Of a stretch of DNA of 64,000 bases, positions 2 to 35,288 are shown piece by piece (positions within the stretch are counted from its first letter, which is position 1; every line of letters begins with the position of its first letter). Both the position numbers and the translations under genes were made by a program. The stretch is from a virus. Its lineage: Duplodnaviria > Caudoviricetes. A model generated the notes under the pieces. That model was not told where the DNA came from and made no database searches. It worked only from the letters and a program-made list of their open reading frames with translations. Location: positions 32,001-96,000 of the IMG/VR virus record IMGVR_UViG_3300001598_000036. One strand, 5' to 3'.

Positions 2-2533
2 GGTACTAATGGTCCTGAAGTAGTTGATTTACCTAAAAATGCAGTTGTATGACCACATAATCAAACCGAACAGATTCTTAAAGGTGAAAATCATAAGGAA
101 TTAAATAGTAACGCTTTTGGTAGTGCATTTACTGGCTATGGTAATCCTTTTGGCAGTGGTAGTGTAGATGGCAATACCAAAACAACTACTACAAAAACAA
201 CATCATCTAAAAAAAGCAAGAAAAAGAATAAAAAATCTAATGATAAATGAGAAAATCCATATGATAAATATTATAATCTCCAAAGAAAAATAACAAAAGA
301 AATACGCGTACGAGAACAGCTTGAAAATAGATATAATCGTATGCTTAAACAGCGCAATTCATCAATTAAAGACTTAACAAAGAATATAGAAGAACAAATT
401 GCTACTTTAGCTCAAACAATTAAAGACGCTAAGTCTATGATGACTAAAAAAGAAGCTCAAGCTGAAAAAGTAGAAGATAAAGTAATCACCGCTGGATACT
501 CTAAGAGTAGTAAAGGAAAATATGTTAAAAAAGATGATGGCGGATATAGAAAAGCAACTAAAAAAGAATTAAAGAATAGTAAAATTCAAAAATATAAAAA
601 GAATGCTGGTGCTATACAAAAGAATTTATCTGATTATGCTTATTGAGATGAAGAAAGCCATCGTGTAATAATTAATCAATCTAAAATTCAACAGATTGAA
701 ACTAACTCAAAGAAAAAAGGAACGACTGGCAAATATTGAGCAGCATTTGGTAAAAAAGTTGAAAAATGGATAAGTGAATTAGAAGAATACCAAGATGCTT
801 ACGAAGAAGCTGAAGACGCTTTAGAAGATGCTATAGATGATTTAGTAGAAATGGAAAGTGAAGCATTAACTACCATAGCAGATTTAGATGGGCAAATTCG
901 CGATGCAATTATTGATTTGCGTCAACAAGAAATTGATAAATTATCTGATGTAAATGATTCAATTAACACTGCAAATGATAGAATTCTTAAGTCGATTAAT
1001 AAAGCTGTTAATAAATTAAGACGCGATAGAGATAATAAAGAAACAGAAACTGATTTAGCAGAAAAAGAAAGACGTTTAGCATATTTAAAACAAGATACTT
1101 CTGGCGCGAATGCTTTAGAGATTAAACAGTTAGAAGAAGAAATTAAAAATGCAAAACAAGATTATCAAGATGAATTAGTCGACCAAGCAATAGAAGACTT
1201 TGAAGATGCTAATGAAGAAGCTTCAGAGCAAAGAGAGAGAATGATTGAATTGCTTGAGGATAAACTTGATGCAGATCAAATGAATGGCGTTATTAATTCT
1301 ATGATTGAACGACTTAAAAATGAGAGTATTATTGATGGAGAATTTAGTGAAGATTCCAATTTAGGAAAATTATTTAAGAATACTACTAATTATTTGCGTG
1401 GAACTGATAACGAACGAACAAAACAATTAAATGATATTATTTCTGCTATTAAGGCAGCTTATGTTGCTCAGACAATTACTTTACCGCAAGTTGCTATACA
1501 AAACGCTTTAAATTCTTCTAGGGAAAATGGTGGAAAACCTGCTAATATTGCTGGCGCAACTGATAGTAGTGGTTCTGCTAAAGGAGTACAAGCTGTAGCA
1601 GGTTCTAGTGGAAACTATTTATTACAAGATGGAAAAGCATATTCCACTGATGCATTAACTCAAGATTCTAGTGGTAATTGAAATTTAGATACTTCACAAA
1701 CTTATCAGCGAACTGGAGCTGATATGGGAATAGATGGTACTGTAGATGATGAAAGATTTGGATTTGTTACTGCAGATGGTCAAGAACGCTGAGGTCAATT
1801 AGATACTAAAAATAATACTATTACAGTTGGTAATACTACATATAAAGATATAAAAGAAGTAGGAGAAGGAGATAATGTTAGTATTGTAAGTTCTACTAAA
1901 ACTTTTGGCAACGGAAAAGCTCCATGAGATTATACTTCTACAGGAAAAATGTGGAATAATAATACTTACAAACGTATAGCTTCAGCTCAATATTTATATC
2001 GTGATTTAGGTTATTCTTCTGATGTTTCTGGTAAATTAAATGGTGTAAAAACATTTAAAAATTACGCTTCAAAAGCAGGATTAACTATATCTTCTGGATC
2101 AGCAAAAAAGAACAAAAAAGACAAAAAGAAAACTGCTTATATTAAAGGAGCAAGTTATTTAAATCAATTCAAAACTCTTCAAGGAAAAACTATTGGTAAT
2201 GATGGAAAAATTTATAAAACAGGCGGCCTTGCTGATTATACAGGCCCAGCTTGGATTGATGGCACCCCTTCAAAACCAGAATTAGTACTTAATGCAAAAG
2301 ATACTTCTAATTTTATTCAATTAAAAGATATTTTAGCCGATATAATGAAAAATAATGGAATATCTACTAATACTGCTAATACAACAACTACAAATGATAC
2401 ATTTAATATATCAGTAAATGTAGATAGCATAGCAAATGATTATGATGTATCAAAATTAGTAACTCAAATCAAAAAAGAAATTACCAAAGAATCAAAATAT
2501 AGAAATGTAAATCAACTTCATCGTTTAAGATAG
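2..2533 (+). CDS. Tail tape measure protein, C-terminal part (5' partial; TGA=Trp)
   Basis: ORFs 341, 851 and 1949 are in one frame and separated only by TGA; coiled-coil sequence; C-terminal TGGLADYTGPAWIDGTPSKPELVLN motif typical of tape measures; lies before the distal tail gene. Confidence 0.85.
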
Positions 2534-2555
2534 TATACTAATTTACGAAAAAAAT

Positions 2556-2570
2556 TACTTTATATTAGAA
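2556..2570 (+). promoter_or_regulatory. Putative late promoter motif (variant TACTTTATATTAGAA)
   Basis: Variant of the CTACTTATANATAGAA motif repeated before structural and endonuclease genes. Confidence 0.45.
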
Positions 2571-2641
2571 TAATGATATATGTAATATGCGGCCGATATA
2601 TTTGCGGTCGGCCGCAGAATACATATAAAAGGAGGAAATAA

Positions 2642-3640
2642 ATGGCAACTACAATAACTGGTGATTTCATCGGTTTTACATATAATAATATTCATTCTAC
2701 TGAATTTGGTGTTATTAGAACAAGTAATGGAGATAGATATGAAAATTCTTTAATTCCCGATTTTGAAGATCAATCTACACAAATTCCAGGAAAAGATGGA
2801 AGTTATTATTTTAGAACAGATTATTCTACAAAAACTTTTAGTATACCAATAGCTTTTGATACTATTTCAGAAGAAGATTTTAGACGTTTTAATAAACATT
2901 TTGGCGATAAAAAATTACATTATTTAACTTTTGATGAAGCTCCTTATAAATCTTATCATGTAAAAATAGCTTCTGCTCCATCTTTAGAATATTTATGTTT
3001 TGAAGAGGGAAATAATAAAAGAGTATACAAAGGAGAGGGAACTTTAGAGTTTGTTGCTTATGAGCCTTTTGCAATAACTACAATTGGAAATAATGGAGGA
3101 TTTAAAAAATACTTAGACAATTATACAGAAGAAAATAAATTAGAATGAGCTGCAGCAAGTGGTATGCTTGAAACAAAAGGAGATTATGATAAATATAAAT
3201 TAGGTGATACAACTGGAAAAGGATATTTTAAAATTTTAAATCCAGGAGATTTAGATACTCCTTTCGGATTAAAATTAGATTTTGTTGATAATATTATTGA
3301 ACAAACAGAAATTAGTATTTTTAAAAATGGTATAAAAGATAATACGAAAGTTTTAAATATTAATAAAATTAAAAAATCAGATATAACCACTGATGTAGAA
3401 ATTAAAAGTATATATATAGATAGTAGAACTCATTTAATATATGCTTTAGACACTAATGGAAATAATACTAATATTTTATTAAATAAATATATTGGATTAG
3501 GAGATTTTTTTAATTTACCTATTTGTCATCAATCTGATGAAGCAGTAATTTTAAATATTGCTTCAAATACTTCTTGAACTGCTGGAGAAGGTAAAGATAC
3601 TGATAAATGTGTTATAACTTATTTTTATCGTTATTTTTAA
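2642..3640 (+). CDS. Distal tail (Dit)-like protein, 332 aa (TGA=Trp)
   Basis: ORFs 2642 and 3164 join through TGA and end at TAA 3638-3640; FTYNNIHSTEFG...IPGKDGSYY...LTFDEAPYKSY pattern; follows tape measure; SD AGGAGG. Confidence 0.8.
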
Positions 3641-3652
3641 AGGAGTAAAAAT

Positions 3653-6600
3653 ATGACAGAAAATTACATTAATTTAAAAAAATACGAAATAAGTTTATGA
3701 GAAGATACTATTGCTTTACGCGATGGAGTAGAATTTTTTAAAGAAAATAAACTATTCGTTATAGGTAGTGATGTAATGAATACTCAGAATTCTGTTTTTG
3801 CACCTAAATTAACGAAAAATGTAAATGGTTCTAAAACTTTAGAATTTAGTATTCATTCTAGATATTATAATGAAAGAGATGGTAAAATTATTGATAATCC
3901 TTTTATTAATTATTTAACAAATGAACGAAAAATTAAATTATATTATAAAAATGAATGATATGATTTTTTAATTAAAAATGTTAATGAAGGTTCAGAAGAA
4001 AATACTTTTATTTATTCTTGTGAAGATTTATATATAAATGAATTATCTAAAATTGGTTATAATTTACAATTTAATACTGAATTAGAAAATAATCAAGGTA
4101 GTATTACTCAATTAACAGAAAAAATTATAGCTGATACAGATTGAACTATTAATTATGATAATACTGAAACAATTCAACAAACAAAAGATGAACCTTTATA
4201 TGATTTATTGATTAGTAATATAACAAAAAATGGTCAACAAATTACTACCTTTCCGGCATTTAAAACAACAGATTTAACGTCAACTAATATTACAGTTTCT
4301 TATGAAGGAAGTGTTATAAAAAATCATTTTTATGTTATCTATAGTTCTTCTACAGAAGCAATTCCAGAAGATACTCCTTCTTTAAAATTTTTTCAATTTA
4401 TTTGTAAGGATGGTAGCGATACTTTTGTTACTGACGATGATAGAATTATTACAGATGCTGATGATTTATTTTTAAGAAATGTTAAAGTAGAAAAAAATAG
4501 TGAAACAAAAGTATTAACTAAATTATCTTGAACTACAGATAATAATGATAAATATATTATTACTTTTAACACTAATAGTCCTGGTTTAATTTATAATCTT
4601 AAAGGGCGTCGTCTAGTACGTAATCAATTATCTACTTTTGATACTGTAGCGAATCGTATGGTTAATATATATGATAAGTCTGAAAATGATACTACTAGTT
4701 ATAAATCATGTGCAGATACTTATTCAGAAGTATCTATTACGATTGATGCTTTTAATATAAATAAAACTAGATATTGAATTAAAGAAGGAAATAATTATAT
4801 TCAATGCACAGAAAGTAGTATTTTTGATAATACAAAAACTTATTATATTAAAATAATTATAGAATATAATAAAGAATGAGATTATTATATTTTACAAAGT
4901 GGGCAATATATAAAACAACAAAAAACTAATCCTACTGAATCTAATTATATAAATAAAACAATTTATGATTCAAATAGGAATATATATCTATATAAAATTA
5001 TTTATTATGGATATACCGAATCTGATTATGTTTCTCCTATTATTTTAGGAGATTTATTAGGTAATGATGATTGTTTATTAGCTTTAGATAATGCTCAAGG
5101 AAGAAAAATTGGTATAACTTCAATTAGTGGATGACAACCTGTATCAGGAGATACCGTAGAACAAAATATGTATCCTCAATATGATTACGGAAGTGGAAAT
5201 TTAATTAATTGATCTCCAACTACTGGCTCTATAATTTTTCATCCACATGAATCAAATTCACCAATATTGAATAGTAAGGTAACTGGAAATAGTATTTTTT
5301 CTACTTACCAAAAAAGTCATAAATTAACTTTACGATTAAATTTATATAAAGCTGATAGTTATACGGTTGAAACTGCTAATAGAGATGATTATATTACTTC
5401 AGAAAACCCAGTTCCAACTCAAAAATGATATAAATATGGAGATAAAATAGATTTATCCTCTTCTAATATTTTTTCTGCATATATTGGATATTATAGAATT
5501 AATGAATATGGAGCAATTATAGAAGAAGATAAAGAAAAATTATATACTTTTAATAATTTTAGATCTGGTAATGATGGATTATATTATGCAGATGCAGAAT
5601 GTACAACTTCTTTATCAGAAGAATGAGTTAAAGAAATGATGTCTGGTTTAACAGATAGTCTTCAAATTGGATTTTTTATTAAAATAGCAGGAAATGATTA
5701 TTATTTATCAGATGCTATGCAGTTATACGAATATCAGACAATGGATGGTAATCAAATATATCCAGGACAAACACCAGAAGCTAAATCGATTACTTGATAT
5801 TGTTATTATCCTTATGACGCAACAATTAAAGAAGAAAAAGATATAGTTTTAGAATATCGAAAGACAGAAGACTCAAATAGTTATATACCTAGATATAGTA
5901 CTTTTTATGAAAAAGTCAGAAGTATTGAAGGTTCAGAATCAAACTGTTTTAATTTAATTCAAACTTTATGTGAAACTTTTGAATGTTGAGCTAGATTTAC
6001 AGTTTGACATAATCCAGAAACTGGAGAAGTAGATAGAGATATAAATAATGAATATATTCATCCTAATAAACAAATAAGTTTTCATAAATATGTAGGAAAA
6101 GATAATGATGTTGGATTTATTTATGGAATAAATTTACAATCTATTGAAAGAACATTGGCTACAGATGAAATAGTTACTAAATTAATAGTAAAAGAAAATA
6201 CTAATGATTATGCAACTGATGGATATTGTACTATCGCGCGTAGTGAAGCAAATCCTACAAAACAAAACTTTATTTTTAATTTTGATTATTATACAAATAA
6301 AAATTTATTAAATGGAACTCAAGTATATAATGATTTATATAAAGAATATGGAGATTATTATTTAGGATATTATCCTAAAATGAAAAAAATATCTAATGAA
6401 GAATTATCATTAATAAATCAATTAGCTAATATAAATATTGATATGATTTCATTAGAAGCTAATTTAGAATCTTCTTATACGATATATAATAGTGCTTTTG
6501 AAACCTATTCCTCTTTTCAAAATGATTTAATGGTTCAACACGGAATTTCTTATGAACAATTAAAAGATACTTCAACAATCGAAGGAGAGAAAAAAACTGA

Positions 6601-9600
6601 AATACAAACTTTATTAAAAACCGATACTTCTTTTAGACAAAGATTATCAGAAGTAGAAACTGCTTATCAAAAATATTTAATATACAAAGGCAGATATGAA
6701 AATTATCATACTTCTCGTGTTTCATTAAAAGAAAAGTTATTTAGCACAGAAGATAGTTTAAAAACTATTTCTTCACAAAAAAGTGCATTAAATAAAGAAT
6801 TATTTGAAAAATATTCTCGTTATATTCAAGAAGGAACTTGAAATGATGATAGTTATATGGATGATACTTTATACTATTATGACGCTGAAGCACTATTATA
6901 TGATTCAGCATATCCTAAAGTTGAGTATAATATTAATGTAATAGATATTAGAGAAATAGACGGTTATGAATGTTATGATTTTGATGTAGGAGATAAAACT
7001 TTTATACAAGATACAGAATTTTTTGGTTATATCAGTAGAAATGATAATGAACCTTATACTCCTAGAAAACAAGAAGTAATTGTTTCAGAAATTACTTGGA
7101 ATCTTGATAATCCTATAGATAATTCAATAACAGTTCAAAATTATAAATCTCAATTTGAAGATTTATTTCAGCGTATAACTGCTACAGTTCAATCAGTAGA
7201 TTATTCTACTGGACAATATGATAGAGCTGCAGCTACTGTAGTAAATGGAACTTTTGATTTAGGAGTATTTCAAGAAACTTTAGATGAAAATTCTATTAGT
7301 ATTATAAATCCTAAAAATAAAGCTGTAATTTTTGATGAACATGGTATTACTTTACGAGATTTAAATGATCCAACAAATTTTGTTAGATTAACTAGTGGAG
7401 GAATTTATACTAGCGCAGATAGTGGTAATACTTGAGGAGCAGCAATTACTGGTAATGGTATTAATACTAATATGCTTACTAGTGGTAATATTAATACTGA
7501 TAATATTACAATTGGCGGAATAAAAAATTATACTTTTTCTTGAGATAAAAAAGGATTAAGCGCTTATGACTTTAATGAATTTTCTAAACAAGAAGATTTA
7601 ACTGAAGCGCAATTTAATGCTAATAAAACTTTATATTATATAAAAAGAAAAGAACATAATTATGAACGTTGTACTATAGAAAGTATTTTTAGTAGCACTG
7701 AAACTTATTATATTAAAACCGATGATATTTGTGAAGTAAATTATAATAAATTTGTTCGCTTTGATAAATATGGCTTATATGGTATTAAAAATATTAATAC
7801 TTCAAAATGAACTCCTAGTTCTATTAATGAAATTAAGAAAAAAGGATATTTTGGAATAACTTGAGATGGATTTTTTATACGTAGTTCTCATTTATCTGGC
7901 GGCCGAGTAGAAATTACTGACGAAGAAGATATTAAAGTTTATGATAAATTTGATACACCAAGAGTCGAAATCGGTTTGATTGGGGAAGATACTTCTTTAA
8001 ATAATGTATATGGAATAGTACTTCGTAAAGAAGCTGTCCCTGGAGAAGATAATAGAATTTTTTATACAGATAATGAAGGTAATTTAACAATTACTGGAAT
8101 TATTCATGCTACTGGTGGAAAAATAGCTGGATTTAATATTATAGGAGAAACTTTACAAGCCACTAATGATAATAATACAGTATTATTAAGTCCATCAGAA
8201 ATTATACTTGGTAAAACTGGAAGTCCTAGTTTTAGAGTTGCTGCTGATGGTTCTTTAACTGCGACTAATGGTAATTTTAGTGGTAAAATTACTACTTCTG
8301 TATTAGAAGCTGCTACTACTCGAATGGTCGGCGGCGCCATGATTTATAAAACTGCAGAAATTATTGATAAAATTACTGAAGCAATTGTTGAATTAAAGAG
8401 CAAAGATTATAGTCATTTTTCTGTTGGAGATAGAGTTTGTATTGTTGAATCGGATAAAACTTATGGCAGTAGTGAAGCTGAAGATTTAACAGTATATAGT
8501 ATTATTGCAAAAACAGCTACTTCTATTACGTTAAATGCGGCACCATCATATTCTAGCAATAAAGATTGTTTATTAGTTTATATAGGTAGCGCGCAAGATG
8601 CATCAAACAATAAATGAGATTGATTGATTGCTACTAATTCTACTAAAAATAGAAGAAACTTTAATAGTTTACCAAATGCAATTACTTTTAATGAAGTTAA
8701 AGTAGAAAATGATAAATTAAAATTAAATCCTAATGTTATTATTGGTGATTTATCTGAGTTAGGATTAAATTTATCTAATGGGTTATACGCAGAAAATGCT
8801 TATTTAACTGGTTCATTTTATGCTAATCAAAATAGTACTGATGCTTCTATGAAATTAGATAAAACTGGATTTAATTTAGGAAATACTTTAACTTATAATA
8901 CTACTACTAAAGAATTAGATATTAATGCTCATTCAATTAAAATTGGAGGAGTGCCTATTGGTTCAGGTAGTACAGTAGAAGATTATAATGCTTATTATAT
9001 ATTAACTTCTGGAGAGCCTACAAAAAATAATACTACTTTAGATAGTAATAATAAACCTGTATCAGATGGAAGTTATAGAGGATATAAAGGAAGTATTTGA
9101 AATACTGAAATGCCGAAAGCTTCTGATATTATGAATGCTTATGCTGGAGATACTACTTCAGAGCCACCAGAACTACCTTGTCAATTATATATAGTTAATG
9201 TTAATAAATTAGCTGATGGTTCTTATTATTTAATGACTCCTAAATTAGTAGGATCTAAAATAGAAATTTCAGGAGTATCTACTTTTAAAGGGTTGGCCGC
9301 AGATCATGGTGAGACTACGATTTTAGGCGGTTATATTAAAGGAACTAATTTAGAATTAGGAGGTAGTAATTCTGGTAGCGGTTCTATTATTATTAAAGAT
9401 TGAAAAGATAGAACTAAAATTCAATTATCAGCAGGCTCTGAAAGTTCTATAGGATATTCTTTTAATCTTGGAAACGCATTAACTTATAGAACTATTGATA
9501 GTGAAACTGATAATGATATATTAGATATTAGTGCAAATACTATTAATATTGGTAAAAAAACATTAAATCAATACATTAATGATAGTACGCAAAAACAGTT

Positions 9601-10039
9601 TGTTTATGTTAGATATGCATCTACTGATAATCCACAAAGTTTAGAAGATATATACTTAGTTCCTAATCCAGATTGAAAGGCTTGATTTATTGCTATTTTA
9701 CAATCTAATAGTAGTGTAGAACCTAATAATGTAGATAGTTATAATGGATTATGAACTAGATTAAAAAATTATAATGATACTGTAATATATATAACTTCTT
9801 CTAAAGGAACTAATTTTATTAAAGAAAATATAGATACTATATTAACTGCTCATGTATTAAAATACATAGGACAAGAAAATACTACTGAATTAACAATTAA
9901 TCAAATAGGAACATTAGGACAATTAAATTGATATTTAAACAATATAAAAATAAAAGAAAATACAAATACATTAACTGTTGTAGATGAAACTACAGGGAAT
10001 AATACTCTAAATTATATTGTTAAATTAGAGGATAATTAA
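3653..10039 (+). CDS. Large tail/baseplate hub (Tal-like) protein, ~2128 aa (TGA=Trp)
   Basis: Seven ORF fragments (3776-9403) share one frame and are broken by TGA; SD GGAG plus ATG 3653; TAA 10037-10039; YPKVEYNINV...VGDKTFIQDTEF motif of phage tail endopeptidase-type proteins; not every codon of the gaps was checked. Confidence 0.75.
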
Positions 10040-10050
10040 AGGAGGAAAAT

Positions 10051-12462: not shown

Positions 12463-12474
12463 AAGGAGTAAAAT

Positions 12475-15393: not shown

Positions 15394-15447
15394 TATATAG
15401 TCAAAACTATTCTAACCCAAACCTCTATACTGTTCTCTCTCAAACGC

Positions 15448-15462
15448 CACTTATAAAAGGAA
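15448..15462 (+). promoter_or_regulatory. Putative late promoter motif (variant CACTTATAAAAGGAA)
   Basis: Partial match to the repeated motif, ~25 nt before the start of 15486. Confidence 0.4.
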
Positions 15463-15485
15463 TAAAAAAAAGGAGGAATTAATAT

Positions 15486-15818: not shown

Positions 15819-15982
15819 TGGCTAGTGAAATTACTTTTGATAAAAATAGTCACGTATTTCAAACATATATGAAAAACGGAACATACAATCCTGTTGGTGA
15901 TATGATAGTTTATGATGGCGGTTCTGTAACCGATGAAGGACCGGAAGATATTTACGATGGCGGCAGCGTCACTGATGAATAA
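15818..15982 (+). CDS. Small hypothetical protein (54 aa) with duplicated YDGGSVTDE
   Basis: TAATG coupling, SD GGAGG; internal 9-aa repeat. Confidence 0.6.
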   Translation: MASEITFDKNSHVFQTYMKNGTYNPVGDMIVYDGGSVTDEGPEDIYDGGSVTDE

Positions 15983-15992
15983 GGAGGAATAA

Positions 15993-16373
15993 ATGGCTAC
16001 AAAAGTTATTAAAGCGACTCTACGTTTTAAAAGAGGTACCGCCGCAGAGTGAATAACTATTAATCCAGTTCTCAAATTAGGAGAACCTGGATATGTAACT
16101 GACTTAAACAAATTAAAAGTTGGTAATGGTCAAGATGTTTGGACTGAATTACCATATTTAGCTGGTGGTGGAACCGAATCAATCGCGGCAGATAATAAAT
16201 CACTTGAAATTTATTTAAATGATGATACACCTACGCTTCGTATAAAAGATTTTAACGAAGCTGAAGCAGGAGAAATCCCGCAGAAAACAGTTGGCGGAAG
16301 CATCGAATGGGTAAACATAAGTGATTTTATGGGAACTATTAGCGAAACTGAGATTCGCGAAATTTGTCAATAA
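15993..16373 (+). CDS. Mtd/hyaluronidase N-terminal-like domain protein (TGA=Trp)
   Basis: KRGTAAE[TGA=W]ITINPVLKLGEPGYVTDLNKLKVGNG..W.ELPY, a known phage fibre-attachment motif whose conserved Trp falls on TGA. Confidence 0.75.
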
Positions 16374-16394
16374 CCAAAAGGAGATAATGCAAAA

Positions 16395-16802
16395 ATGGCT
16401 GAGAAATTTTTGAACAAAGAAGGATTATCTACCCTTTGGTCGATAATCAAAGAAAAAGACCTTAAATTAGAAGGCGATATTAAACAGATTGTAAATCTTG
16501 GTTATTTTTATGAGAATGAATTCTATACTGACCAAGAACATTTACATAAATATGTACCTTATTCGTATAAATTATATATTGAGATTAGTACTCACGTAGT
16601 TTATGCGTATATAAATAATCAATACGTAGCAGTAGGCTCTATGCCTGGGCAGGCAGATGAAACTCATGCTGGTATTGCTAAATTATATGACGCGAAAGGT
16701 GCTAATACTGATGGATCAATGACACAAAAAAGTGTTACTAATTATATCAATGATAAAGTAGGCGCAGAAATTCAAGAAGAACTTCTCGTCTTAACACGTT
16801 AA
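16395..16802 (+). CDS. Structural/fibre-associated protein
   Basis: ORF; FLNKEGLSTLW and AGIAKLY..GANTDGSMTQK motifs common in phage fibres. Confidence 0.65.
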   Translation: MAEKFLNKEGLSTLWSIIKEKDLKLEGDIKQIVNLGYFYENEFYTDQEHLHKYVPYSYKLYIEISTHVVYAYINNQYVAVGSMPGQADETHAGIAKLYDAKGANTDGSMTQKSVTNYINDKVGAEIQEELLVLTR

Positions 16803-16838
16803 TACTTTAAAAAATTTTTTAAGGAGATTAAATTAATT

Positions 16839-18212
16839 ATGGCTGATATTAGTAAAATTAAGATTGGCGAAGGTGATGCGGTCAATTTAAAGGACGCTGC
16901 AGCTAGAGGAGATATCTCAACTCTCGTTGGAAGCCATTCAGTTGCCGCTCTTGGCGATGCTGCTTGGAAGGATATTGCTAGTGCTATTACTACTACAGAA
17001 ACAGGTCTCGCAACTGGTAAACAGGTTTACGATGCTATCCAAGGTATTGGACAGGCTCTTCACTTTGTTGGTATTGCTACTCAGCAAGAAGGCGAAACCG
17101 AACTTCAGGCTGTAGAAAGAACTTTCCCTGCTGCTCAGCAAACAGCTGGCGCAATCGCTATCTGCGGAGAAAAAGAATTTATCTGCGCTGGAAATGGAAC
17201 GGGCGGCGCAATGAAGTGGAATGAATTTGGTGATGTAAGTGCTTATGAAACTAAGGCTCACGCTGAAGCTACTTATACTCCAATGACAAGAACAATTGCA
17301 GGAGTTGATTTAGCAGATAATATCACTGCTACTGAAATGAAGACTGCATTAGAACTGAAGGGCCTTGCTTTTAAGGATAGTGCTTCTGGTTCAATTTCAA
17401 CTGCTGACAGTGGTACTGTTTCAGTTGGTAAAGCTGGAGATTATAATGTAAGCGCTCAGACAGTTGATGTTCCTGATACTTACAATGCTCTGGATGTAAC
17501 TCCTGCTGGTACAGTTGAAGTTACTAAGTCAAGTGCTGCTACTGCTTCATACAAGAAGACAACTGGTGTTACTGTAAGTGGAGCTACTGCAACTGGAGAA
17601 CAAACTCCTAACTATACTCCTGCTGGAACAGTTTCAAAACCAAATGTGACTGCTTCACTGACTCTTGCTGAGGGTTCAGTTGCTACTGTAACTGATGCTG
17701 GTACAGGATACTCATTAAGCGCTGGTAAGATTGAAGCTGATTCTGATACAAAAGCTAAATTCGTACAGGAAGCTGTTGTAATGCACGTTGGTGATACAAC
17801 TAAGTCAGAAGATGCAGAATGTCTGTATGTAGTAGCTGCTGAAAAGGGTGATGCTGTTACTGCTTCAAAAACTTGGACACTTACTAATCCAACTCTGAGC
17901 GGATCACTTCCAACATTCGGTTCAAAAGACGTTGTTATTAAAACTGGTACAAGTGTTGCTGCTGAACTGGCTGCTGCACCTACATTCACAGGTTCAGGCG
18001 CGGTTCTGAGCGCAGAAGCTGTTCTGTTAGATGCTGATGCAACTGTTACAGATGCTGTTTATACTGCAAGCTTCAGTGGTACTGCTGCTAAAGTTACTCC
18101 TTCAGTTAAGACTACTAAGAGTGGTGCAGTATCAACTGGTAGTGTTACTGTTGATAGTGAAACTGCAAACGTTACTCTGAGCACAAGTGCAAAGACTGTT
18201 ACTGTTTCTTAA
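16839..18212 (+). CDS. Abundant fibre/decoration-like protein (Ala/Thr/Ser-rich), 457 aa
   Basis: ORF; TPAGTVS/PTFTGS repeats; codon usage of a highly expressed gene; Trp only as TGG; followed by a terminator. Confidence 0.7.
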   Translation: MADISKIKIGEGDAVNLKDAAARGDISTLVGSHSVAALGDAAWKDIASAITTTETGLATGKQVYDAIQGIGQALHFVGIATQQEGETELQAVERTFPAAQQTAGAIAICGEKEFICAGNGTGGAMKWNEFGDVSAYETKAHAEATYTPMTRTIAGVDLADNITATEMKTALELKGLAFKDSASGSISTADSGTVSVGKAGDYNVSAQTVDVPDTYNALDVTPAGTVEVTKSSAATASYKKTTGVTVSGATATGEQTPNYTPAGTVSKPNVTASLTLAEGSVATVTDAGTGYSLSAGKIEADSDTKAKFVQEAVVMHVGDTTKSEDAECLYVVAAEKGDAVTASKTWTLTNPTLSGSLPTFGSKDVVIKTGTSVAAELAAAPTFTGSGAVLSAEAVLLDADATVTDAVYTASFSGTAAKVTPSVKTTKSGAVSTGSVTVDSETANVTLSTSAKTVTVS

Positions 18213-18232
18213 TCCGAACAATAATGTGTTTT

Positions 18233-18261
18233 ATGAGAGGAATGGAAACATTCCTCTCTTT
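18233..18261 (+). terminator. Intrinsic terminator
   Basis: GAGAGGAATG-GAAA-CATTCCTCTC followed by T-run. Confidence 0.7.
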
Positions 18262-18276
18262 ATTTAGGAGAATATT

Positions 18277-18411
18277 ATGGATATTTCAAAGATTCAAATG
18301 CCTAATGGAGAAGAATATAATATTAAAGACGCAGAAGTGCGCCATATGATAGCAGTTTTATTAGGTCAAGAATCTAATGAAACTAATGAAGATAAAGGAG
18401 AAGAAGAATAA
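18277..18411 (+). CDS. 44-aa protein consisting mainly of the shared DISKI..Y.IKD N-terminal module
   Basis: SD AGGAG; MDISKIQMPNGEEYNIKDAEVR; stop overlaps next ATG. Confidence 0.65.
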   Translation: MDISKIQMPNGEEYNIKDAEVRHMIAVLLGQESNETNEDKGEEE

Positions 18412-19550
18412 TGGCTGATATATCGAAAATTAAATTACCGGGTATGACCGATGCGTATAATGTCAAAGATACAACAGCTAGAACTAATGCAGCAACTGCT
18501 CAATCAACTGCAGAAGCAAAAGTAGCTAAATCTGGCGACACAATGACTGGCGCATTAGTACTTAGTGGAGCGCCAACAGAAAATCTTCACGCTTCAACTA
18601 AAAAATATGTAGATGATGCAATTGCTGGAATTTCTGGCGGAATGATATTCAAAGGTACTTTAGGTACTGGTGGTACAATTTCTACTTTACCTGCTGCAGC
18701 TGCCGCAAATAAAGGACATATGTATAAAGTAATAACTGATGGTACATATGCTGGAATTGCTGCTAAAGTAGGAGATTTATTTATTTCAGATGGTAGTACT
18801 TGGGTTCATATTCCATCTGGTGATGAACCAAGTGGAACAGTTACTAATATAGCAACTGGAACTGGATTAACAGGTGGTCCTATTACTACTAGTGGAACAA
18901 TTGCTATTGATGAAAATGTAGTAGCTAAAAAAGGTGATGGAATTACAGGTACTGTAACTCCATTAGGTTCAAATGCTGCTTCAAGTGTATCATTTAGTGG
19001 TACTGTAGCAAGCGCAAGTTCATTAAAGACTGCTGGTTCAGCTGGTACTATGGCCGCCATAGATGTTTCTAAGTTTAATGGAGGTACCCCAACTGCCGTT
19101 ACAATGGCTACTATTGATACTACTAAATTTAGTGGCGGTTCATTAAGTGCTGGTTCATTTAATGGTGGTTCTGGTTCATTTACACAAGGAGCTGATGAAT
19201 ATCAAACTACTACTTATGATGTAACCAATGAAGTATTGACGATTACTGCTGGCTCATTTACTCAAGGAACTGATAGTCATACTCATACTGCGGCAACCCA
19301 TACTCAGGGTACTCTTACACCAGCTGCACTTGGGACTGGATTCTACACTGCTGGTTCAGTTACTGATGGTACTGCTGCAAGTCTTGGAGCTGGATTCTAT
19401 ACTGCTGGTACTGCTCCAACAATGCCAACATTTGATACTATTTCAAATATTGTTACTAAGAATACAACAGCTACTGCTGCTGCTCAAACATTTAGTGGTT
19501 CTGAAAGTACTGTTAGTGGTACTATTAATCTTCCACCTAGTATTGAATAA
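18411..19550 (+). CDS. Fibre/decoration-like protein, 379 aa
   Basis: KVAKSGDTMTGAL..HASTKKYVD and GTVTNIATGTGLTGGPITTSGTI fibre motifs. Confidence 0.7.
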   Translation: MADISKIKLPGMTDAYNVKDTTARTNAATAQSTAEAKVAKSGDTMTGALVLSGAPTENLHASTKKYVDDAIAGISGGMIFKGTLGTGGTISTLPAAAAANKGHMYKVITDGTYAGIAAKVGDLFISDGSTWVHIPSGDEPSGTVTNIATGTGLTGGPITTSGTIAIDENVVAKKGDGITGTVTPLGSNAASSVSFSGTVASASSLKTAGSAGTMAAIDVSKFNGGTPTAVTMATIDTTKFSGGSLSAGSFNGGSGSFTQGADEYQTTTYDVTNEVLTITAGSFTQGTDSHTHTAATHTQGTLTPAALGTGFYTAGSVTDGTAASLGAGFYTAGTAPTMPTFDTISNIVTKNTTATAAAQTFSGSESTVSGTINLPPSIE

Positions 19551-19559
19551 TAATTTATG

Positions 19560-19592
19560 AAGAGATTGGATTTATTTCCAATCTCTTTTTTT
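19560..19592 (+). terminator. Intrinsic terminator
   Basis: AGAGATTGGA-TTTATT-TCCAATCTCT followed by T-run. Confidence 0.75.
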
Positions 19593-19721
19593 ATTTCGTT
19601 GGCGGCCGTCACAAAATTATGTACGAATTGTAGCCTATGTTTAGGACGTAGCGATCGGCCGCACCCAACGTAATTCTACTACATAAAACAATAAAAAAAT
19701 ATACGCATATAAAACTAATTC

Positions 19722-19737
19722 CTACTTATAAATAGAA
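19722..19737 (+). promoter_or_regulatory. Putative late promoter CTACTTATAAATAGAA
   Basis: Identical 16-mer on the - strand at 52893-52908 and close variants elsewhere. Confidence 0.6.
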
Positions 19738-19866
19738 GATTTGAAAACGATAATCTCAATTAAAATTCTTTTTACCTTTGGAACTGATTATGCGTAGAAG
19801 ATATATACACTACAAATGACATTATAATTCCAAAGGATAATAATGTCTTTTTTTATAGGAGAAATT

Positions 19867-20106
19867 ATGGCAAAGAATATAAAAACATATAAATCTGATA
19901 TAGTTGAAAACTGAGAAAAAGCAAAAAACTTTAGACCTAAACCAGGAGAACTAATCTGTTATTCTGATATACAACAATTTAAAATCGGAGAGCAAGATGA
20001 TACAAAAGAAGAAGGAATAGGAAAATTACTATCAGATTTAGAGTTTCTAGTTAAAGAAACAGAATATAATTATACAGTTAAAGAAAATATATTAATTATT
20101 AAATAG
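19867..20106 (+). CDS. Small Mtd-N-like structural protein (TGA=Trp)
   Basis: DIVEN[W]EKAKNFRPKPGELICYSD...FKIG motif; SD AGGAG. Confidence 0.65.
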
Positions 20107-20116
20107 GAGGAAAATA

Positions 20117-20596
20117 ATGGCAAATATATCACAAATTAAATTGCCTAATAATGATACGGTATATGATATAAAAGATGCAAATGCCATTTCAAAGAATTTA
20201 GGAATAGCGGCAGGAGATATAATTTATTTTACTAATACTTCTACTCCTGCTCGATTACCAAAAGGCACTAATGATCAAGTATTAACTTTAAAAAATGGTT
20301 TACCTGCTTGAGCAAATTCTACAGGAGGAGCTCAAGTTATAACATTAACTAATTTAACTATTACTACTAGTGATTGAAGTAGTGATTTAACATATGCAGC
20401 GTATCCTTATAAAGCTACTATTAATGCAAGTGGAGTGGATAATACTTTTACTCCAGAAATTATTTTATCAGTTGATGATGCTACAGAAGGTATTATTGCA
20501 CCAGTAGCATTAAGTGGAAATAGTAGTGTATCTTTATATGCTTCTGAATTGCCAACTAAATCTATAACTATAGCTACTGCGTTATTTATTAAATAA
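20117..20596 (+). CDS. Fibre-associated protein, 159 aa (TGA=Trp)
   Basis: AGDIIY...PARLPKGTNDQVL...PA[W] motif; shared N-terminal module; C-terminus resembles that of 10051-12462. Confidence 0.7.
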
Positions 20597-20607
20597 AGGA
20601 GAATAAA

Positions 20608-21444
20608 ATGTTAGGAGATGTTTCTACTTTTAATATTTCTGAAAAGAGATTAGTTAAAATATTAATCACTAATTTACCGAATAAGACTAATTATATTCAT
20701 GGAGAAATATTAGATTTAACAGGATTAGAAATTAGAGCATTATATAATTATGGTTCTTCACAAATTATTAATAATTATATTACTTCTCCAGCATCGGGAG
20801 CTTCGGTATCAACTAATGATACAAAAGTTGTTGTAAGTTATACAGAAAATAATATTACGTGTACTGCGGAATTTAATATTAATGTAAGACGACAGTTGAG
20901 TAGTATTCAATTATCTGGAACATATACTACATCATATTATGCTGGAGATGAATTAGATTTAGATGGGTTAGTAGTAACTGCTTATTATAATAATAATACA
21001 TCTCAAATTGTAACTAATTATACTTCTTCTCCAGTAGAAGGTACTATATTAACTACTTCTACAACTAATGTTATTATTTCTTATAGCGAAGAATCTGTTA
21101 CTAAAACAGCTCAATATAATATTACAGTAGAAGATCCAGTTAGAACAATTACTATTTCAGGAACAGGAAATAGTAGTTATTGTTATGTTAGTATTGATGG
21201 GTCAAAGAAAACTGCTTCAGGAAGCTATACAGTGGATAAAGGAGATACAATTATTTTCGGTGTATATGGTAGAAGCAGTACTTATTATGGAGAAGTAAAA
21301 ATTGATGACACACAAGTACTAAAAGTTACTAATCAAACAACTAAAACTTATAATTATATAGTAAATAATAATTTAACAATATCTTTATCTTATACTTCTA
21401 GTAGTTCAACTCGAAGAGGAAGAATTACTGTAATAACTTCATAA
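20608..21444 (+). CDS. Bacterial Ig-like domain protein
   Basis: Two P.KT.Y..GE.LDLTGL.V.A.Y repeats (Big_3-like). Confidence 0.75.
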   Translation: MLGDVSTFNISEKRLVKILITNLPNKTNYIHGEILDLTGLEIRALYNYGSSQIINNYITSPASGASVSTNDTKVVVSYTENNITCTAEFNINVRRQLSSIQLSGTYTTSYYAGDELDLDGLVVTAYYNNNTSQIVTNYTSSPVEGTILTTSTTNVIISYSEESVTKTAQYNITVEDPVRTITISGTGNSSYCYVSIDGSKKTASGSYTVDKGDTIIFGVYGRSSTYYGEVKIDDTQVLKVTNQTTKTYNYIVNNNLTISLSYTSSSSTRRGRITVITS

Positions 21445-21457
21445 AGAGGAGAAAACA

Positions 21458-23515
21458 ATGATAGGAAGAACAAACGCAGGAGGAAATGCAGCAAATACTA
21501 TTACTAGTATAATTATTACAACTCCTCCTACTAAAACAGTCTATAATGCTGGAGAAACAGTTGATTTAACTGGTATTATAGTAAAAGCAAATTGAAAAGA
21601 TGGCTCGCAAGAAACTATAACAAATTCTTGCACTTTTAATCCAGCTAGTGGTACAGTTATTTATGAAACAACTACTTCTATTGATATTTCATACTATGAT
21701 AAAATTACAGGAGTAACATTTAGAGCTTCACAAGATATTACTGTAAATAGAATACCTAATTCATTAGTAATTGTTTCAGAACCCACTAAAACTGAATACG
21801 AAGCTGGAGAAACTTTAGATTTAACAGGATTAATAGTAAAAATAATATACAACTCAGGAGCAGAAAATACTACAAGTAATTATACAACAAGTCCTGCAGG
21901 AGGAAGTGAATTAACAGGCGGTACAAGTAGCGTTTTAGTTAGTTATACAGAAAATAGTATTACAGTAAGTAATAGTTTTAATATTACTGTAAATATTGGT
22001 ATAGCTTTATGGAGTGATCCAAATGCTACAACAGCTGATTTATTAGCTACCATCGCAAAAGCAGAAAGTGGAAAAATTGATTTGTCTACTTATTGAAGTA
22101 TTGGTGATACGAGAACAGTTACACTTCCGGCGATTTCGACTACTTCGGGTACTTATGATGGTATTAATTGAAGTGTTGGAGAGACTCATACTTCGCAAAA
22201 AATTGATTTAGTATTGATGGATTACTTGCCTAATGGATTTAGTATTGATGGTTATAAACCATTGTATGTAGTAGGAATGAAAGATTCATTAGCTACTAAG
22301 GGATATATGAATTCATCAGACACTAATACTGGTGGTTGAAATTCTTCTAAACGTAGAGGATGATGTAATCAAGCATTTAAAACTGCTATTGATTCTGTAT
22401 TATCTGGAATTTTTAAACAGTTTAGTTGACAAACTGGTATTGGTGGAGGGGCATCTTCTGGATTGCAGAATGCTTGTAGTGATTATTTTGGGTTAACGCC
22501 AGAAAAATGTATATTTGGTTCTAGGAGTTATTCTATTACCGATGAAGCGAACTTATTTAATCAATGAGAATATTATACTACTTCATCAAATAGGATTAAA
22601 AAATTAGGTAAAACTGGTTCCACTACCAGTTGGTGAGAGTGTTCTCCTTCTTCAGGGAACTCCGACCGTTTCTGTTATGTCGACTACAACGGTTCCGCCT
22701 ACGGTTACATTGCGAGCGGTGCTAGTGGCTTAGCGCCTTTCGGCTGTATCGGCAAATCTACTACGATTGCTCCAAAATCATTCGCAAGTGCTACTGACGC
22801 AGAAATCACTGCGATGGTCGCCGCCCATGACGCTGGCCAAATCGATTTAACAGAAATTTGAAGCGTTGGTGACCAACGTACAGTTCAACTTTCTGCTATG
22901 ACAGCTACTGGCGTTGGAGAATCGCATGTAGCACAAAGTCAGACATTGGTGTTGATGGATTCTACATGTGATGGATTTACGATTACAGGAACGAATAAGA
23001 AACCAACTTTTATTGTTGGATTGAAGAATTTTTTAGCGAAGGGAACTAGTGAAGAATATGGATATATGAATTCAACCGATACTAATACTGGAGGATGAAA
23101 TTCTTGCGCTAGAAGAACTTGGTGTAATAATGTGTTTAAAAATGCTTTACCAAGTGCATTATTACCAGCATTTAAACAATTTACTTGGCAAATAGGTAGA
23201 GGTGGAGGAGCTACTTCTGGATTAATATCTTCTGATGATTATTTTGCTTTACCTCCGGGAAAAGCAATATTTGGTAGTACAACCCATTATGCTCAAACTG
23301 ATGAAGATAATTTATTTAATCAATGAGAATATTATACTACTAGTGCTAATAGAAAAAAATATCCAGGAGACAGTAGTACTTCCGCTGACTATTGGTGAGA
23401 GTGTTCTCCTTGTTCAGGGGACTCCTACGGTTTCTGTTATGTCGCCTACACCGGTGGCGCCGACTATTACTATGCGAGCGATACTAGTGGCTTAGCGCCT
23501 TTCGGCTGTATCTAA
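21458..23515 (+). CDS. DGR target: two Ig-like domains plus two tandem C-type-lectin-like domains each ending in a VR, 685 aa (TGA=Trp)
   Basis: One frame through many TGA codons from ATG 21458 to TAA 23513-23515; duplicated GYMNS.DTNTGGW...WWECSP...GLAPFGCI domains. Confidence 0.85.
22619..22750 (+). repeat. DGR variable repeat VR1 (internal)
   Basis: Aligns without gaps to 23381-23512 and 24032-24163; differences mainly at codon positions 1-2 of NNC/NNT codons. Confidence 0.85.
23381..23512 (+). repeat. DGR variable repeat VR2 (C-terminal)
   Basis: As VR1; ends immediately before the stop codon. Confidence 0.88.
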
Positions 23516-23527
23516 AATCTACTAAAT

Positions 23528-23543
23528 CTACTTATACGTAGAA
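23528..23543 (+). promoter_or_regulatory. Putative late promoter (CTACTTATACGTAGAA) for avd-TR-RT, overlapping a small hairpin 3' of VR2
   Basis: Match to the repeated motif; TCTAC-ttatac-GTAGA inverted repeat. Confidence 0.5.
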
Positions 23544-23588
23544 AATAAATTCGTTATAACTTATTAAAAAGCAATATAAATCTAAATT

Positions 23589-24014
23589 ATGACTGTACCT
23601 ACATATAAAAGATCTGTTTCTCCAGCCCAATTTATAGAAGAAACACGACAATTAAATATACGATTAGGACAAATTATTATGAATTATCCTACAAAATATA
23701 GACAAAATTATGGTGATTTTTTAATTAAATCAGCTTTAAAGGCATTACAATTACTTCAAAGCGCTAATAAAATATTTATAACTAAAGAATTACCAAAAGA
23801 ATTAAAATTAATACGTTATAAAAAAATCATAGAAGCAGAGGGGATAATAGAGAATATTTCCTCTAGCTTTTCAATTTATGCAGGCCTTCTATCTAATAAA
23901 GATGGAATTAATAGAGAGAAATTAGCTAATCAAGAAGTAGAAATAGGAACACAATGTTTTAATATTATAAATCTTCTCGATGGCTTACAAAAAAGTGATA
24001 AAAAATATCACTAA
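23589..24014 (+). CDS. avd: DGR accessory variability determinant (Avd-like)
   Basis: 141-aa basic helical protein between target gene and TR/RT, the canonical position. Confidence 0.7.
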   Translation: MTVPTYKRSVSPAQFIEETRQLNIRLGQIIMNYPTKYRQNYGDFLIKSALKALQLLQSANKIFITKELPKELKLIRYKKIIEAEGIIENISSSFSIYAGLLSNKDGINREKLANQEVEIGTQCFNIINLLDGLQKSDKKYH

Positions 24015-24031
24015 AGGTTATTTACTGCTAA

Positions 24032-24163
24032 ATCGCTAGCGTTTGGTGAGAGTGTTCTCCTTGTTCAGGGTACTCCTACGATTTCTGTTATGTCACCTAC
24101 AACGGTGACGCCTACACTATCAGTGCGAGCTATACTAGTGGCTTAGCGCCTTTCGGATGTAAA
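24032..24163 (+). repeat. DGR template-repeat position (TR), but adenine-depleted
   Basis: Non-coding third copy between avd and RT; divergent 3' end GGATGTAAA vs GGCTGTATC (IMH*/IMH-like). Confidence 0.75.
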
Positions 24164-24311
24164 ATGTAGGTAGAAGAGTAGTATATATGAAATTATACCA
24201 TTAAAAATAATTAAAAATATTTTTATATTTTACAGGAGTGAATAAACCCAGTATTTATACTAAATTAGATTCATGATTTATATTGCTTTAACGTCAATTA
24301 TAAATATACAC

Positions 24312-25343
24312 ATGATGACTCAACCAACTTTTGAAGAAGTATTTACTCCATCTCATTTAATGGAGGCCGCGCATAAATGTTGTAATAACGTTAGATGAAA
24401 ACGTTCTACACAATTATTTGAATTAAATCAATCTATTGAAATTGCTAAACTATATAAAGAATTAATGAATGGAACATATATTTCTAAAGGATTTAATAAA
24501 TTTAGTATTATTGAAAGAGGTAAAAAACGTAATATTCAAGCAGTTCATATTACTGAACGAGTTGTTCAAAAATGTTTATGTACTTATTTTTTAAGACCTC
24601 TATTAGAACCAAAATTAATTATTGCAAATGCAGCTAGTTTACCTGGAAAAGGAACTGATTATAGTATTAATAGATTAAAAAAAGATTTAATTTCACATTA
24701 TAGAAAATATGGAAGAGAAGGCGGTATTTTATTATTAGATTATAAAGATTTTTTTAATTCTATTCCTCATATAAAAATTTTAAATATGTTAAAATATATG
24801 ATAGAAGATGAAAAAATTTTTGATTTAACTTCTAATTTTGTAACTGCTTTTAAAGGAGAGAAAGGATTAGGATTAGGTAGTGAAGTATCACAAATGTTAG
24901 CCATTTATTATCCTAATATTATAGATCATTATATTAAAGAACATTTATATATTAAAGGATATGGTAGATATATGGATGATAGTTATTTAATACATCAAGA
25001 TTTAAATTATTTAAAATATTGTTACAAAAAAATTTATAATTTAAATCAAGATTTACAATTATCAATGCATAAATGTAAAATAGTTAAATTTAATCAATAT
25101 TTTACTTTTTTAAAGAAAAAGTTTTTTATAACCAAAACAGGAAAAATTATTATAAATATAAAACGTCAAAATATTACACATCATAGAAATAAATTAAAAA
25201 AATTATATAAAAAAAGAGTAAATCCTATTCATTCCCATCAAGCGTGAAAAGGATATGCTTTAAATTACAATAGTTACAATACTGTACAAAAAATGGATTT
25301 ATTATATAATAATCTATTTACAGAGGAGGGAAAAAATGACTAA
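24312..25343 (+). CDS. DGR reverse transcriptase, 343 aa (2 TGA=Trp)
   Basis: VR[W]KRS, ERGKKRNI, LLDYKDFFNSI, GLGLGSEVSQ and YGRYMDD motifs; adjacent to the repeats. Confidence 0.92.
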
Positions 25344-25515
25344 CGACGATAGATATGAAGTTATGAAAATGATTAAACAAGCAAAAGACGAACTTCGTAG
25401 AGAATTTTGAGATGAATCAAATAAAAATTGGGCTGATAAAGCCGAAACTAAAGAAAATGTTAATGATAATACTGATGCTATACTCGAACTCGCAGAAATA
25501 GTAGGAGGTAATTAA
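25336..25515 (+). CDS. Small tail-module protein (TGA=Trp)
   Basis: SD GAGGAGG; ends NTDAILELAEIVGGN, typical of the partner of CD1375-like genes. Confidence 0.6.
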
Positions 25516-29381: not shown

Positions 29382-29382
29382 T

Positions 29383-30447: not shown

Positions 30448-30448
30448 A

Positions 30449-35287: not shown

Positions 35288-35288
35288 A

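Follow-up and report, generated by a model that had tools for sequence, protein, structure and literature searches.

How does a phage come to hold tail genes that are legible only when TGA is a sense codon beside replication genes that contain no TGA at all, and what would read the codon? The question is raised by a 64,000-nucleotide stretch of phage DNA, bases 32001-96000 of one 126,454-bp IMG/VR virus record (IMGVR_UViG_3300001598_000036); we call this stretch the window and label the phage G000. The record has a GC content of 31.5%, is linear without end repeats, and reached a CheckV completeness of 100%. Coordinates below are window positions unless marked as genome. The plus strand of the window carries tail and diversity-generating retroelement (DGR) genes to about 26 kb. 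A sigma-like gene, terminase, portal, and head genes lie upstream of the window, and a ROOL RNA, a lysis cassette, and six tRNA genes lie downstream. We hold with good confidence that the window derives from an SPbeta-like, Agate-type 126-kb phage of a walled, standard-code Firmicute, that the genome is written in two compatible dialects, and that the reader of UGA is most probably a phage-borne split tRNA.

Under translation table 11, the plus strand of positions 2-25515 broke up into open reading frames (ORFs) of 100-460 amino acids (aa), whereas under table 4 the same strand gave long genes of 843 (open at the 5' end), 332, 2128, 803, 972, and 685 aa. The coding density of the late region was 0.64 with code 11, 0.95 with code 4, and 0.67 with code 15. 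The 15 genes of positions 2-25515 contain 78 in-frame TGA and 18 TGG codons, with no in-frame TAA or TAG. An earlier note on this DNA, made from the sequence alone, had claimed that the tail genes are continuous only if TGA is read as sense; the comparison of codes 4 and 11 that it had proposed bore this out.

Tryptophan (Trp) codons were counted over the whole genome after spurious ORFs had been removed. The packaging, tail, and DGR genes hold 129 TGA and 30 TGG codons and the lysis cassette (genome 104717-108166) holds 18 and 9, against 4 and 118 in the 36 genes of an early minus-strand block. The contrast between late plus lysis genes (147 TGA:39 TGG) and the early block (4:118) was strong (Fisher p=9e-45). 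The TGA share per gene was bimodal: among the 68 genes that have three or more Trp-type codons, 36 had a share of 0 and only one lay between 0 and 0.2. Per-gene counting, also suggested by the note, thus separated TGA-rich late genes from replication genes with no TGA. In the recoded genes TGA makes up about 80% of the Trp codons. In late genes its share is 0.78, not far from the 0.84-0.95 that A-ending codons reach in the other NNR codon pairs, so that TGA is used there nearly as an ordinary Trp synonym.

The early block (27980..62849, minus strand) is devoted to replication and nucleotide metabolism and encodes dUTPase, a split NrdJ, DnaE, a DHH/RecJ-like protein, primase, DnaB, a split GyrA, a split GyrB, and a UvrD-like helicase. 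Its core genes use TGG only, as had been claimed: there are no TGA codons against 20 TGG in DnaE, 6 in DnaB, 5 in primase, 1 in the DHH/RecJ-like gene, 6 and 1 in the NrdJ pieces, 2 in GyrA, 3 in GyrB, and 1 in dUTPase. Any ORF called in the standard code has zero in-frame TGA by definition, so the informative point on these genes is stop usage. The block ends its genes with TAA 28 times, TAG 6 times, and TGA twice (n = 36); the reported preference for TAA and TAG thus covers 34 of 36 genes. TGA closes 17-23% of genes in relatives without TGA recoding, including 24 of 106 in the sister phage G001 described below, and about 17-20% in those that use the standard code. Because the early genes have been cleared of TGA as both Trp and stop codon, they yield the same product in either code. 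The partition by function proposed in the note is confirmed with qualifications. The contrast of late and early genes stands, but head genes and a GC-rich group of ORFs are free of TGA, and some endonucleases of the early block and an intein-bearing RuvC gene are rich in it.

The identity of the residue was examined at the five motifs in which TGA had been noted at conserved Trp positions. All five are present, and the cited Trp is TGA in each. On the plus strand, GTAAEW lies at 16035, VRWK at 11619 and 24390, and WWECSP, with its Trp pair written TGG then TGA, at 22631, 23393, and 24044. Two motifs sit outside 2-25515, on the minus strand in homing endonucleases: KAYWLGF at 53989 and (R/K)EIYWI at 56187 and 63665. 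We also masked TGA as X and aligned the G000 proteins to 74 related loci, which covered 44 TGA sites. Opposite TGA, 703 of about 1160 residues were W, with Y and F the next commonest. W was the majority residue at 19 of the 44 sites, many of them invariant (41/41, 55/55, and 57/57 relatives), and the TGG codons of G000 aligned to W at the same rate as its TGA codons. These alignments indicate that TGA is read as Trp in the late genes of G000.

The 74 loci came from a search based on the major capsid protein (MCP), and many lie on contigs of 100-135 kb; a search for relatives based on UvrD returned none. Coding density was used to score the 59 of the 74 loci that reach 8 kb or more: 39 were standard, 16 were TAG-recoded, and 4 were TGA-recoded, with a fifth TGA-recoded one borderline. 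The closest relatives of G000 (69-70% MCP identity) use the standard code, and the nearest of these, G006, has no suppressor, neither tRNA(CUA) nor Trp-type tRNA(UCA). G001 is a syntenic sister of 114.9 kb with a DnaE 64% identical to that of G000; it is TAG-recoded and carries a tRNA(CUA). In the table of orthologues between the two phages, all 13 TGA-bearing G000 genes have a TAG-bearing orthologue and 20 pairs are clean in both (p=3e-5). G007, a TGA-recoded relative, carries a Trp-type tRNA(UCA) beside its tRNA-Trp(CCA). That suppressor (L140:8092-8187) is 96 nt long, and in its variable region an extra 22 nt resemble another anticodon arm, carrying CCA, as though tRNA-Trp had been partly duplicated.

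Late-biased stop recoding in gut phages was known, as the earlier note had said. Borges et al. (bioRxiv 10.1101/2021.08.26.457843) described the same arrangement, and the recoding partition is a phenomenon published for gut and rumen phages of standard-code hosts, of which G000 is one more well-resolved example. The Agate clade of that preprint shares with G000 a genome size of about 127 kb, TGA read as Trp, replication genes in the standard code, several recoded modules of structural and lysis genes, few TGA stops, an early gene that holds a TGA-rich group I intron endonuclease, and an origin in animal-gut or rumen-type samples. As in the family of G000, standard, TAG-recoded, and TGA-recoded members occur together in the clade. 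The likeness is drawn from the description in the paper and not from phylogeny or sequence. The two differ in that the suppressor tRNA of the published representative was seen by tRNAscan, whereas G000 has only an intron-split, non-canonical candidate. TAG-recoded crAss-like phages, for which code 15 has proteomic proof (Yutin et al. 2021, PMC7886860; Peters et al. 2022, PMC9523058), have late-only stop reassignment, suppressor tRNAs of their own, and standard-code hosts in common with G000 as we read it. They belong to another phage order, infect hosts of the phylum Bacteroidota, and reassign TAG to Gln. Among GenBank entries, the G000 DnaE is matched most closely by YorL of Bacillus phage SPbeta, with 38% identity across 95% of the protein. 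SPbeta has a similar genome size; it is distant from G000 and uses the standard code throughout.

Certain late genes are exempt from recoding. Four head genes at genome 14544-18203 (phrog_3313, a scaffold-like gene, an MCP-like gene, and the gene after it) hold 0 TGA and 6 TGG (p=8e-5 against the other late genes). Adding the gene at genome 20933-21664, which we tentatively guess to be the major tail protein, gives a five-gene group with 0 TGA and 7 TGG. Its codon usage also differs, with an AAA share of 0.55 against 0.86 and a CAA share of 0.36 against 0.84. In-frame recoded stops were counted per aligned aa in the 16 TAG-recoded relatives. The MCP had 0 stops in 5415 aligned aa, the scaffold-like gene 1 in 2873, the gene after MCP 2 in 2417, and the homologue of genome 20933-21664 3 in 3017, while neighbouring late genes had 1.1-3.1 stops per 100 aa. 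The phrog_3313 homologue, with 0 TGA in G000, is only partly spared in these relatives (31 stops in 6752 aligned aa). The most abundant virion proteins probably keep TGG because suppression is never fully efficient. The word "capsid" has 0 occurrences in the text of the Borges preprint, and an exemption of capsid genes is not mentioned there; the exemption of virion proteins across TGA and TAG lineages is possibly a new detail.

As for the decoder, a canonical suppressor was sought over the whole contig with ARAGORN (default, intron, and relaxed modes) and the Rfam tRNA model, and only six tRNAs were found, for Thr, Gln, Leu, Lys, Ser, and Met. Some tca-anticodon hits that ARAGORN gave at relaxed thresholds fell inside coding genes and were discarded as noise. 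A search of the genome for release factor 1 (RF1, PF00472) and tryptophanyl-tRNA synthetase (TrpRS, PF00579), as the earlier note had advised, gave no match for either.

A candidate was found on the plus strand within the window. A sigma-70-type promoter with a perfect 12/12 match (TTGACA-17 nt-TATAAT; 59777..59805) stands ahead of a standard-code ORF of 63 aa (59833..60024), which is predicted to be co-transcribed with a split tRNA-Trp(UCA)-like gene. The 5' exon (60028..60057) runs from the acceptor strand AGGGGTG through U34, and the 3' exon (60284..60324) runs from C35 and A36 through CACCCCT-G73-CCA. Between them lies a group I intron of 226 nt with no ORF (60058..60283), a full-length match to RF00028 (56.4 bits against a gathering score of 50; E=2e-13), and a strong intrinsic terminator (60349..60380) closes the unit. 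The joined exons make a 71-nt molecule with a perfect 7-bp acceptor stem, A1-U72, G73, an encoded CCA, a 5-bp T stem, and the loop CUUCAAA. No PHROG or Pfam function was found for the 63-aa ORF or for a 399-aa ORF beside the tRNA. The unit has a counterpart in the Jade code-change operon (Borges et al., Fig. S6), where likewise a standard-code unit supplies UGA decoding to a TGA-recoded Firmicute phage. The Jade unit consists of a suppressor tRNA, TrpRS, and RF1, whereas that of G000 consists of the 63-aa ORF and the split tRNA, with no RF1 or TrpRS.

When a pattern combining the 3' splice junction with the Trp-type acceptor end was searched for, homologous copies turned up in metagenome contigs (seven) and in one IMG/VR record. 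Five full-length homologues have an identical intron start (CAACC) and end (GTAAG|CAAAACC). Spliced in silico, they gave 75-nt tRNAs with anticodon UCA, accepted by ARAGORN in bacterial mode in three of five cases by default and in all five at ps90. In an alignment of the six sequences, 87.8% of the cloverleaf cells were paired, against at most 49% when the partners were slid, and compensatory changes occurred at three of the five T-stem pairs and at pair 28-42. Two pattern scans of viral contigs with the acceptor and anticodon arm gave chance matches only, and an exact 21-mer over the 5' splice site found nothing in metagenomes.

The IMG/VR copy belongs to G011, a phage of 146.5 kb that is TGA-recoded over most of its length; at 90-100 kb, for example, coding density rises from 0.55 to 0.93. 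Not one of the 38 canonical tRNAs of G011 has the anticodon UCA, and its copy of the split gene lies within the tRNA cluster. G011 and G000 are unrelated, and no portal match was found between them. That two unrelated TGA-recoded phages carry the split gene, both without a canonical suppressor, is the strongest argument for it as the decoder. In positions 1-10000 of G011, coding density was 0.26 in the standard code, 0.26 with TGA as sense, 0.42 with TAG, and 0.67 with both, which may reflect double recoding.

Related introns occur in other tRNAs. G001 (L043:8360-9185) and G007 (L140:10310-11150) each have a homologous group I intron with an HNH ORF in tRNA(UAA), at the same site (U34|A35), and the HNH ORF of the G007 intron itself contains in-frame TGA. 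The tRNA-Leu(UAA) group I introns of cyanobacteria and plastids (Xu et al. 1990 and Zaug et al. 1993, cited in PMC3984707) also lie between nucleotides 34 and 35, with exons that pair in the anticodon stem; their host is tRNA-Leu(UAA), whereas the intron of G000 lies in a phage suppressor-type tRNA(UCA). According to a 2014 review, every phage group I intron then known was in a protein-coding gene, and a limited literature search found no later report of one in a phage tRNA. The family of intron-split suppressor tRNAs is possibly a new detail.

On this evidence, the split tRNA is most probably the UGA reader of G000, and the likeliest course of infection is as follows. The early genes (replication, nucleotide metabolism, and small ORFs) would be translated by the host machinery in the standard code, with TGG as Trp and TAA or TAG as stops. 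Meanwhile the phage would make its own UGA-reading tRNA-Trp, which must be spliced. Once there was enough of it to outcompete release factor 2 (RF2), the genes for packaging, tail, DGR, resolvase, and lysis proteins would become translatable, as would half of the homing endonucleases. No phage gene would be read through under suppression, because the whole genome avoids TGA stops. A bolder form of this reading states that the code switch in G000 and the unrelated G011 is run by a previously undescribed family of phage tRNA-Trp(UCA), whose anticodon is split between U34 and C35 by a self-splicing group I intron, so that suppressor supply and late translation depend on splicing, and that the family accounts for some of the roughly 65% of code-4 phages without a suppressor. 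We put this forward tentatively, as a serious contender that falls a little short of being the probable answer. In Borges et al. (bioRxiv 10.1101/2021.08.26.457843), suppressor tRNAs were seen in only 35% of code-4 genomes.

Several observations weigh against our main reading, and some of them concern timing. The consensus sigma-70 promoter may drive the tRNA from the first minutes of infection, which weakens the case for a sharp temporal switch, and recoding may be merely tolerated in genes expressed after the tRNA has accumulated. Recoding would then be real but passive: AT pressure turns TGG to TGA wherever the suppressor makes the change harmless, only genes expressed before the tRNA or at very high output stay clean, and nothing is regulated. 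We find this somewhat doubtful, though well worth entertaining. It agrees with the late TGA share of 0.78, near the compositional expectation for A-ending codons, with the constitutive look of the promoter, and with the abundant virion genes, which have expression-type codon usage, 0 TGA in G000, and 0-3 stops per 2400-5400 aligned aa in the 16 TAG relatives. Low GC together with loss of stop codons is also the evolutionary route proposed by Borges et al. (bioRxiv 10.1101/2021.08.26.457843). Against it, lineages with different recoded codons have recoded orthologous genes, and lysis and homing-endonuclease genes, whose premature expression would be harmful, are recoded as a regulatory model predicts; both observations also fit tolerance. 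A gate and passive tolerance cannot be separated from sequence alone. Constant suppression would compete with the timed switch that we favour.

Other observations concern the split tRNA itself. The G000 copy is the least canonical of its family, with a D loop of about 3 nt lacking G18/G19 and the T loop AGCGTTA, and ARAGORN accepts it in mitochondrial mode only. P1, drawn by hand, has A-U instead of the usual G.U at the predicted 5' splice site. In three homologues, acceptor pair 6-67 is a C.A mismatch, and no sequence forms pair 27-43. A canonical suppressor could moreover sit in unassembled sequence, since the contig has no terminal repeat. UGA might then be decoded without the split tRNA, by such an unassembled suppressor or by means of a phage factor that alters the host tRNA-Trp(CCA) or blocks RF2, and 60028-60324 would be a decaying relic that hosts a selfish intron. 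The truncated D arm and non-canonical T loop of a copy that bacterial tRNA finders reject suit this idea, as does the retention of only six canonical tRNAs in G000 against 23-38 in relatives. We nevertheless judge it unlikely. All four stems are held while the loops have changed; exons and junctions are conserved in at least six sequences, with compensatory changes; and the element has its own consensus promoter and terminator. In the unrelated, TGA-recoded G011 the split gene is the sole UCA tRNA. Finally, about 190 essential TGA codons, 34 of them in one gene, need efficient decoding, for which leaky reading by tRNA-Trp(CCA) would presumably be insufficient. The intron and the covarying exons are real features of the genome; splicing, charging with Trp, and UGA decoding by the split tRNA are what we propose for them.

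The host of G000 is very probably a walled, standard-code Firmicute, judging from the following features. Products of the lysis cassette include a muramidase of the GH25 family, a Peptidase_C39_2 protein, and a third protein in which the PG_binding_1 domain occurs twice; this set argues for a walled host and hence against a Mollicute. Mollicutes are wall-less, and the known free-living bacteria that read UGA as Trp, Mycoplasma and Spiroplasma, are wall-less as well. In the non-coding left end of the genome (396-3024), perfect matches to the Cheo-type LexA box (CGAAC-N4-GTTCG) occur three times and perfect matches to the parS site (TGTTTCACGTGAAACA) twice; relaxed LexA sites numbered 5 against 1.1 expected by shuffling. 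It counts against this assignment that alignment of the MCP and the GH25 endolysin to 185,579 species genomes gave no prophage or endolysin relative and no host link. The suggestion of the earlier note that the host uses the standard code and the phage switches code during infection is supported indirectly, by the wall enzymes, the LexA and parS sites, the standard-code closest relatives, and a TAG-recoded sister with an amber suppressor; a timed switch could not be told apart from passive tolerance by sequence.

If the host itself read UGA as Trp, being a Mollicute or another code-4 bacterium, the phage would need no switch and its TGA-free genes would reflect ancestry or chance. Such a host would suit the lack of a canonical suppressor tRNA, RF1, or TrpRS on the contig, the low GC content of 31.5%, which is like that of code-4 bacteria, and the failure of the scan of species genomes to find a match. 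It is nonetheless very improbable. A count of 118 TGG against 4 TGA in 36 early genes is impossible without selection when late genes of equal GC are 78% TGA, and a lysis cassette with three proteins that hydrolyse or bind peptidoglycan demands a walled host. The presence of Cheo LexA boxes and parS sites also speaks against it, as do nearest relatives in the standard code and a sister phage that recodes TAG in the same genes.

Reading of TGA as glycine (code 25, as in phages of Absconditabacteria/Gracilibacteria) or as selenocysteine can be set aside as hardly credible: code-25 phages are known from gut data sets (Borges et al., bioRxiv 10.1101/2021.08.26.457843) and ARAGORN labels UCA tRNAs "SeC", but the residues at TGA are W, then Y and F, with Gly at 20 of about 1160 aligned residues and the majority at 0 of 44 sites, the candidate tRNA has the Trp identity elements A1-U72 and G73 and lacks a long variable arm or 8/5 acceptor/T geometry, and about 190 TGA sites are far too many for selenocysteine, whose SECIS machinery was neither searched for nor expected.

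The remaining late genes of the window, all on the plus strand, fill in the pattern. The window opens in the C-terminal 843 aa of a tape-measure-like protein of 3951 aa (2..2533; genome 22678-34533; PhageMin_Tail), with 7 TGA in the window and 34 TGA:4 TGG in the whole gene. It is followed by a distal tail protein (Dit) of 332 aa (2642..3640; 2 TGA:0 TGG), a tail protein of 2128 aa (3653..10039; 26:1), a minor tail or fibre protein of 803 aa (10051..12462; 12:2), a tail protein of 972 aa (12475..15393; 13:0), and a 126-aa protein with a tail-fibre N-terminal domain (15993..16373), whose single TGA lies in the GTAAEW motif. Three TGA-free ORFs of 135, 457, and 379 aa come next (16395..19550; 0 TGA:5 TGG), with a GC content of 0.38 against about 0.29. 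A short stretch of the last, the 379-aa ORF, matches tail fibres. The island has no orthologue in G001 and is probably a recent import from a standard-code source. Three small tail-associated genes (19843..21444) encode proteins of 87 aa (1 TGA), 159 aa (2 TGA), and 278 aa (Big_3, no Trp codon).

The DGR spans 21458-26157 and comprises the target, the reverse transcriptase, a small accessory ORF (23589-24014), and a phrog_1401 ORF (25765-26157). The putative target is a 685-aa protein with Big_3 and DUF6273 domains (21458..23515; 12 TGA:5 TGG) and two variable-repeat ends marked by WWECSP; the reverse transcriptase (24273..25343) has 2 TGA and 0 TGG. The WWECSP-ended repeat is present in three copies, two inside the target (22631 and 23393) and one in non-coding sequence (24044), and the third is probably the DGR template. 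At the head of the late region, upstream of the window, the sigma-like gene is recoded in G000 and heavily so in TAG relatives (15 TAG in G001). Should it be a late sigma factor, the code change would stand upstream of late transcription, which is speculation. A full-length ROOL RNA (RF03087, 287.5 bits; genome 103345-103964) lies between the early block and the lysis cassette.

The minus strand carries several homing elements. One, adjoining the early block, is the LAGLIDADG intein that interrupts the gene of a RuvC-like resolvase (26190..27980; 9 TGA:1 TGG); the G001 orthologue of this resolvase has 6 TAG and no intein. PHROG names for this gene ("terminase", "primase", "helicase") were rejected, being matches to the intein; Pfam and tblastn show a RuvC-like protein with a LAGLIDADG intein. 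NrdJ (30449-33754), GyrA (49964-55098), and GyrB (55180-58066) are each in two to three pieces parted by LAGLIDADG, GIY-YIG, or other endonuclease genes, while in G001 the orthologous GyrA (779 aa) and GyrB (619 aa) are unbroken. At the gathering threshold, Rfam called no group I intron at the split sites of these three genes. Between the gyrA pieces lie a GIY-YIG homing endonuclease (51905..52858; 1 TGA:0 TGG) and a phrog_4645 endonuclease (53408..54226; 7:0) with the KAYWLGF motif; between the gyrB pieces lies another GIY-YIG homing endonuclease (55675..56388; 4:1), and a GIY-YIG/HNH homing endonuclease is found at 62871..63920 (5:2). Among the eight homing endonucleases of the early block, four are TGA-rich and four are TGA-free. 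A code-4 ORF on the plus strand at 48830-49918, with 13 TGA, was rejected as spurious; it is antisense to a real gene, and relatives have R, I, or G at its TGA positions.

These findings bear on how such phages are read and how they evolve. Genomes like that of G000 will be badly mis-annotated unless gene calling uses mixed codes. A single phage family with standard, TAG-recoded, and TGA-recoded members, in which the same genes are recoded, is a good system for the evolution of code change, and the sparing of abundant virion proteins, seen whether a lineage recodes TGA or TAG, suggests that suppression carries a real cost. If the split tRNA is indeed the decoder, it is one that standard tRNA finders miss, which would explain the apparent lack of a suppressor in most code-4 phages, and its splicing would provide a testable molecular timer.

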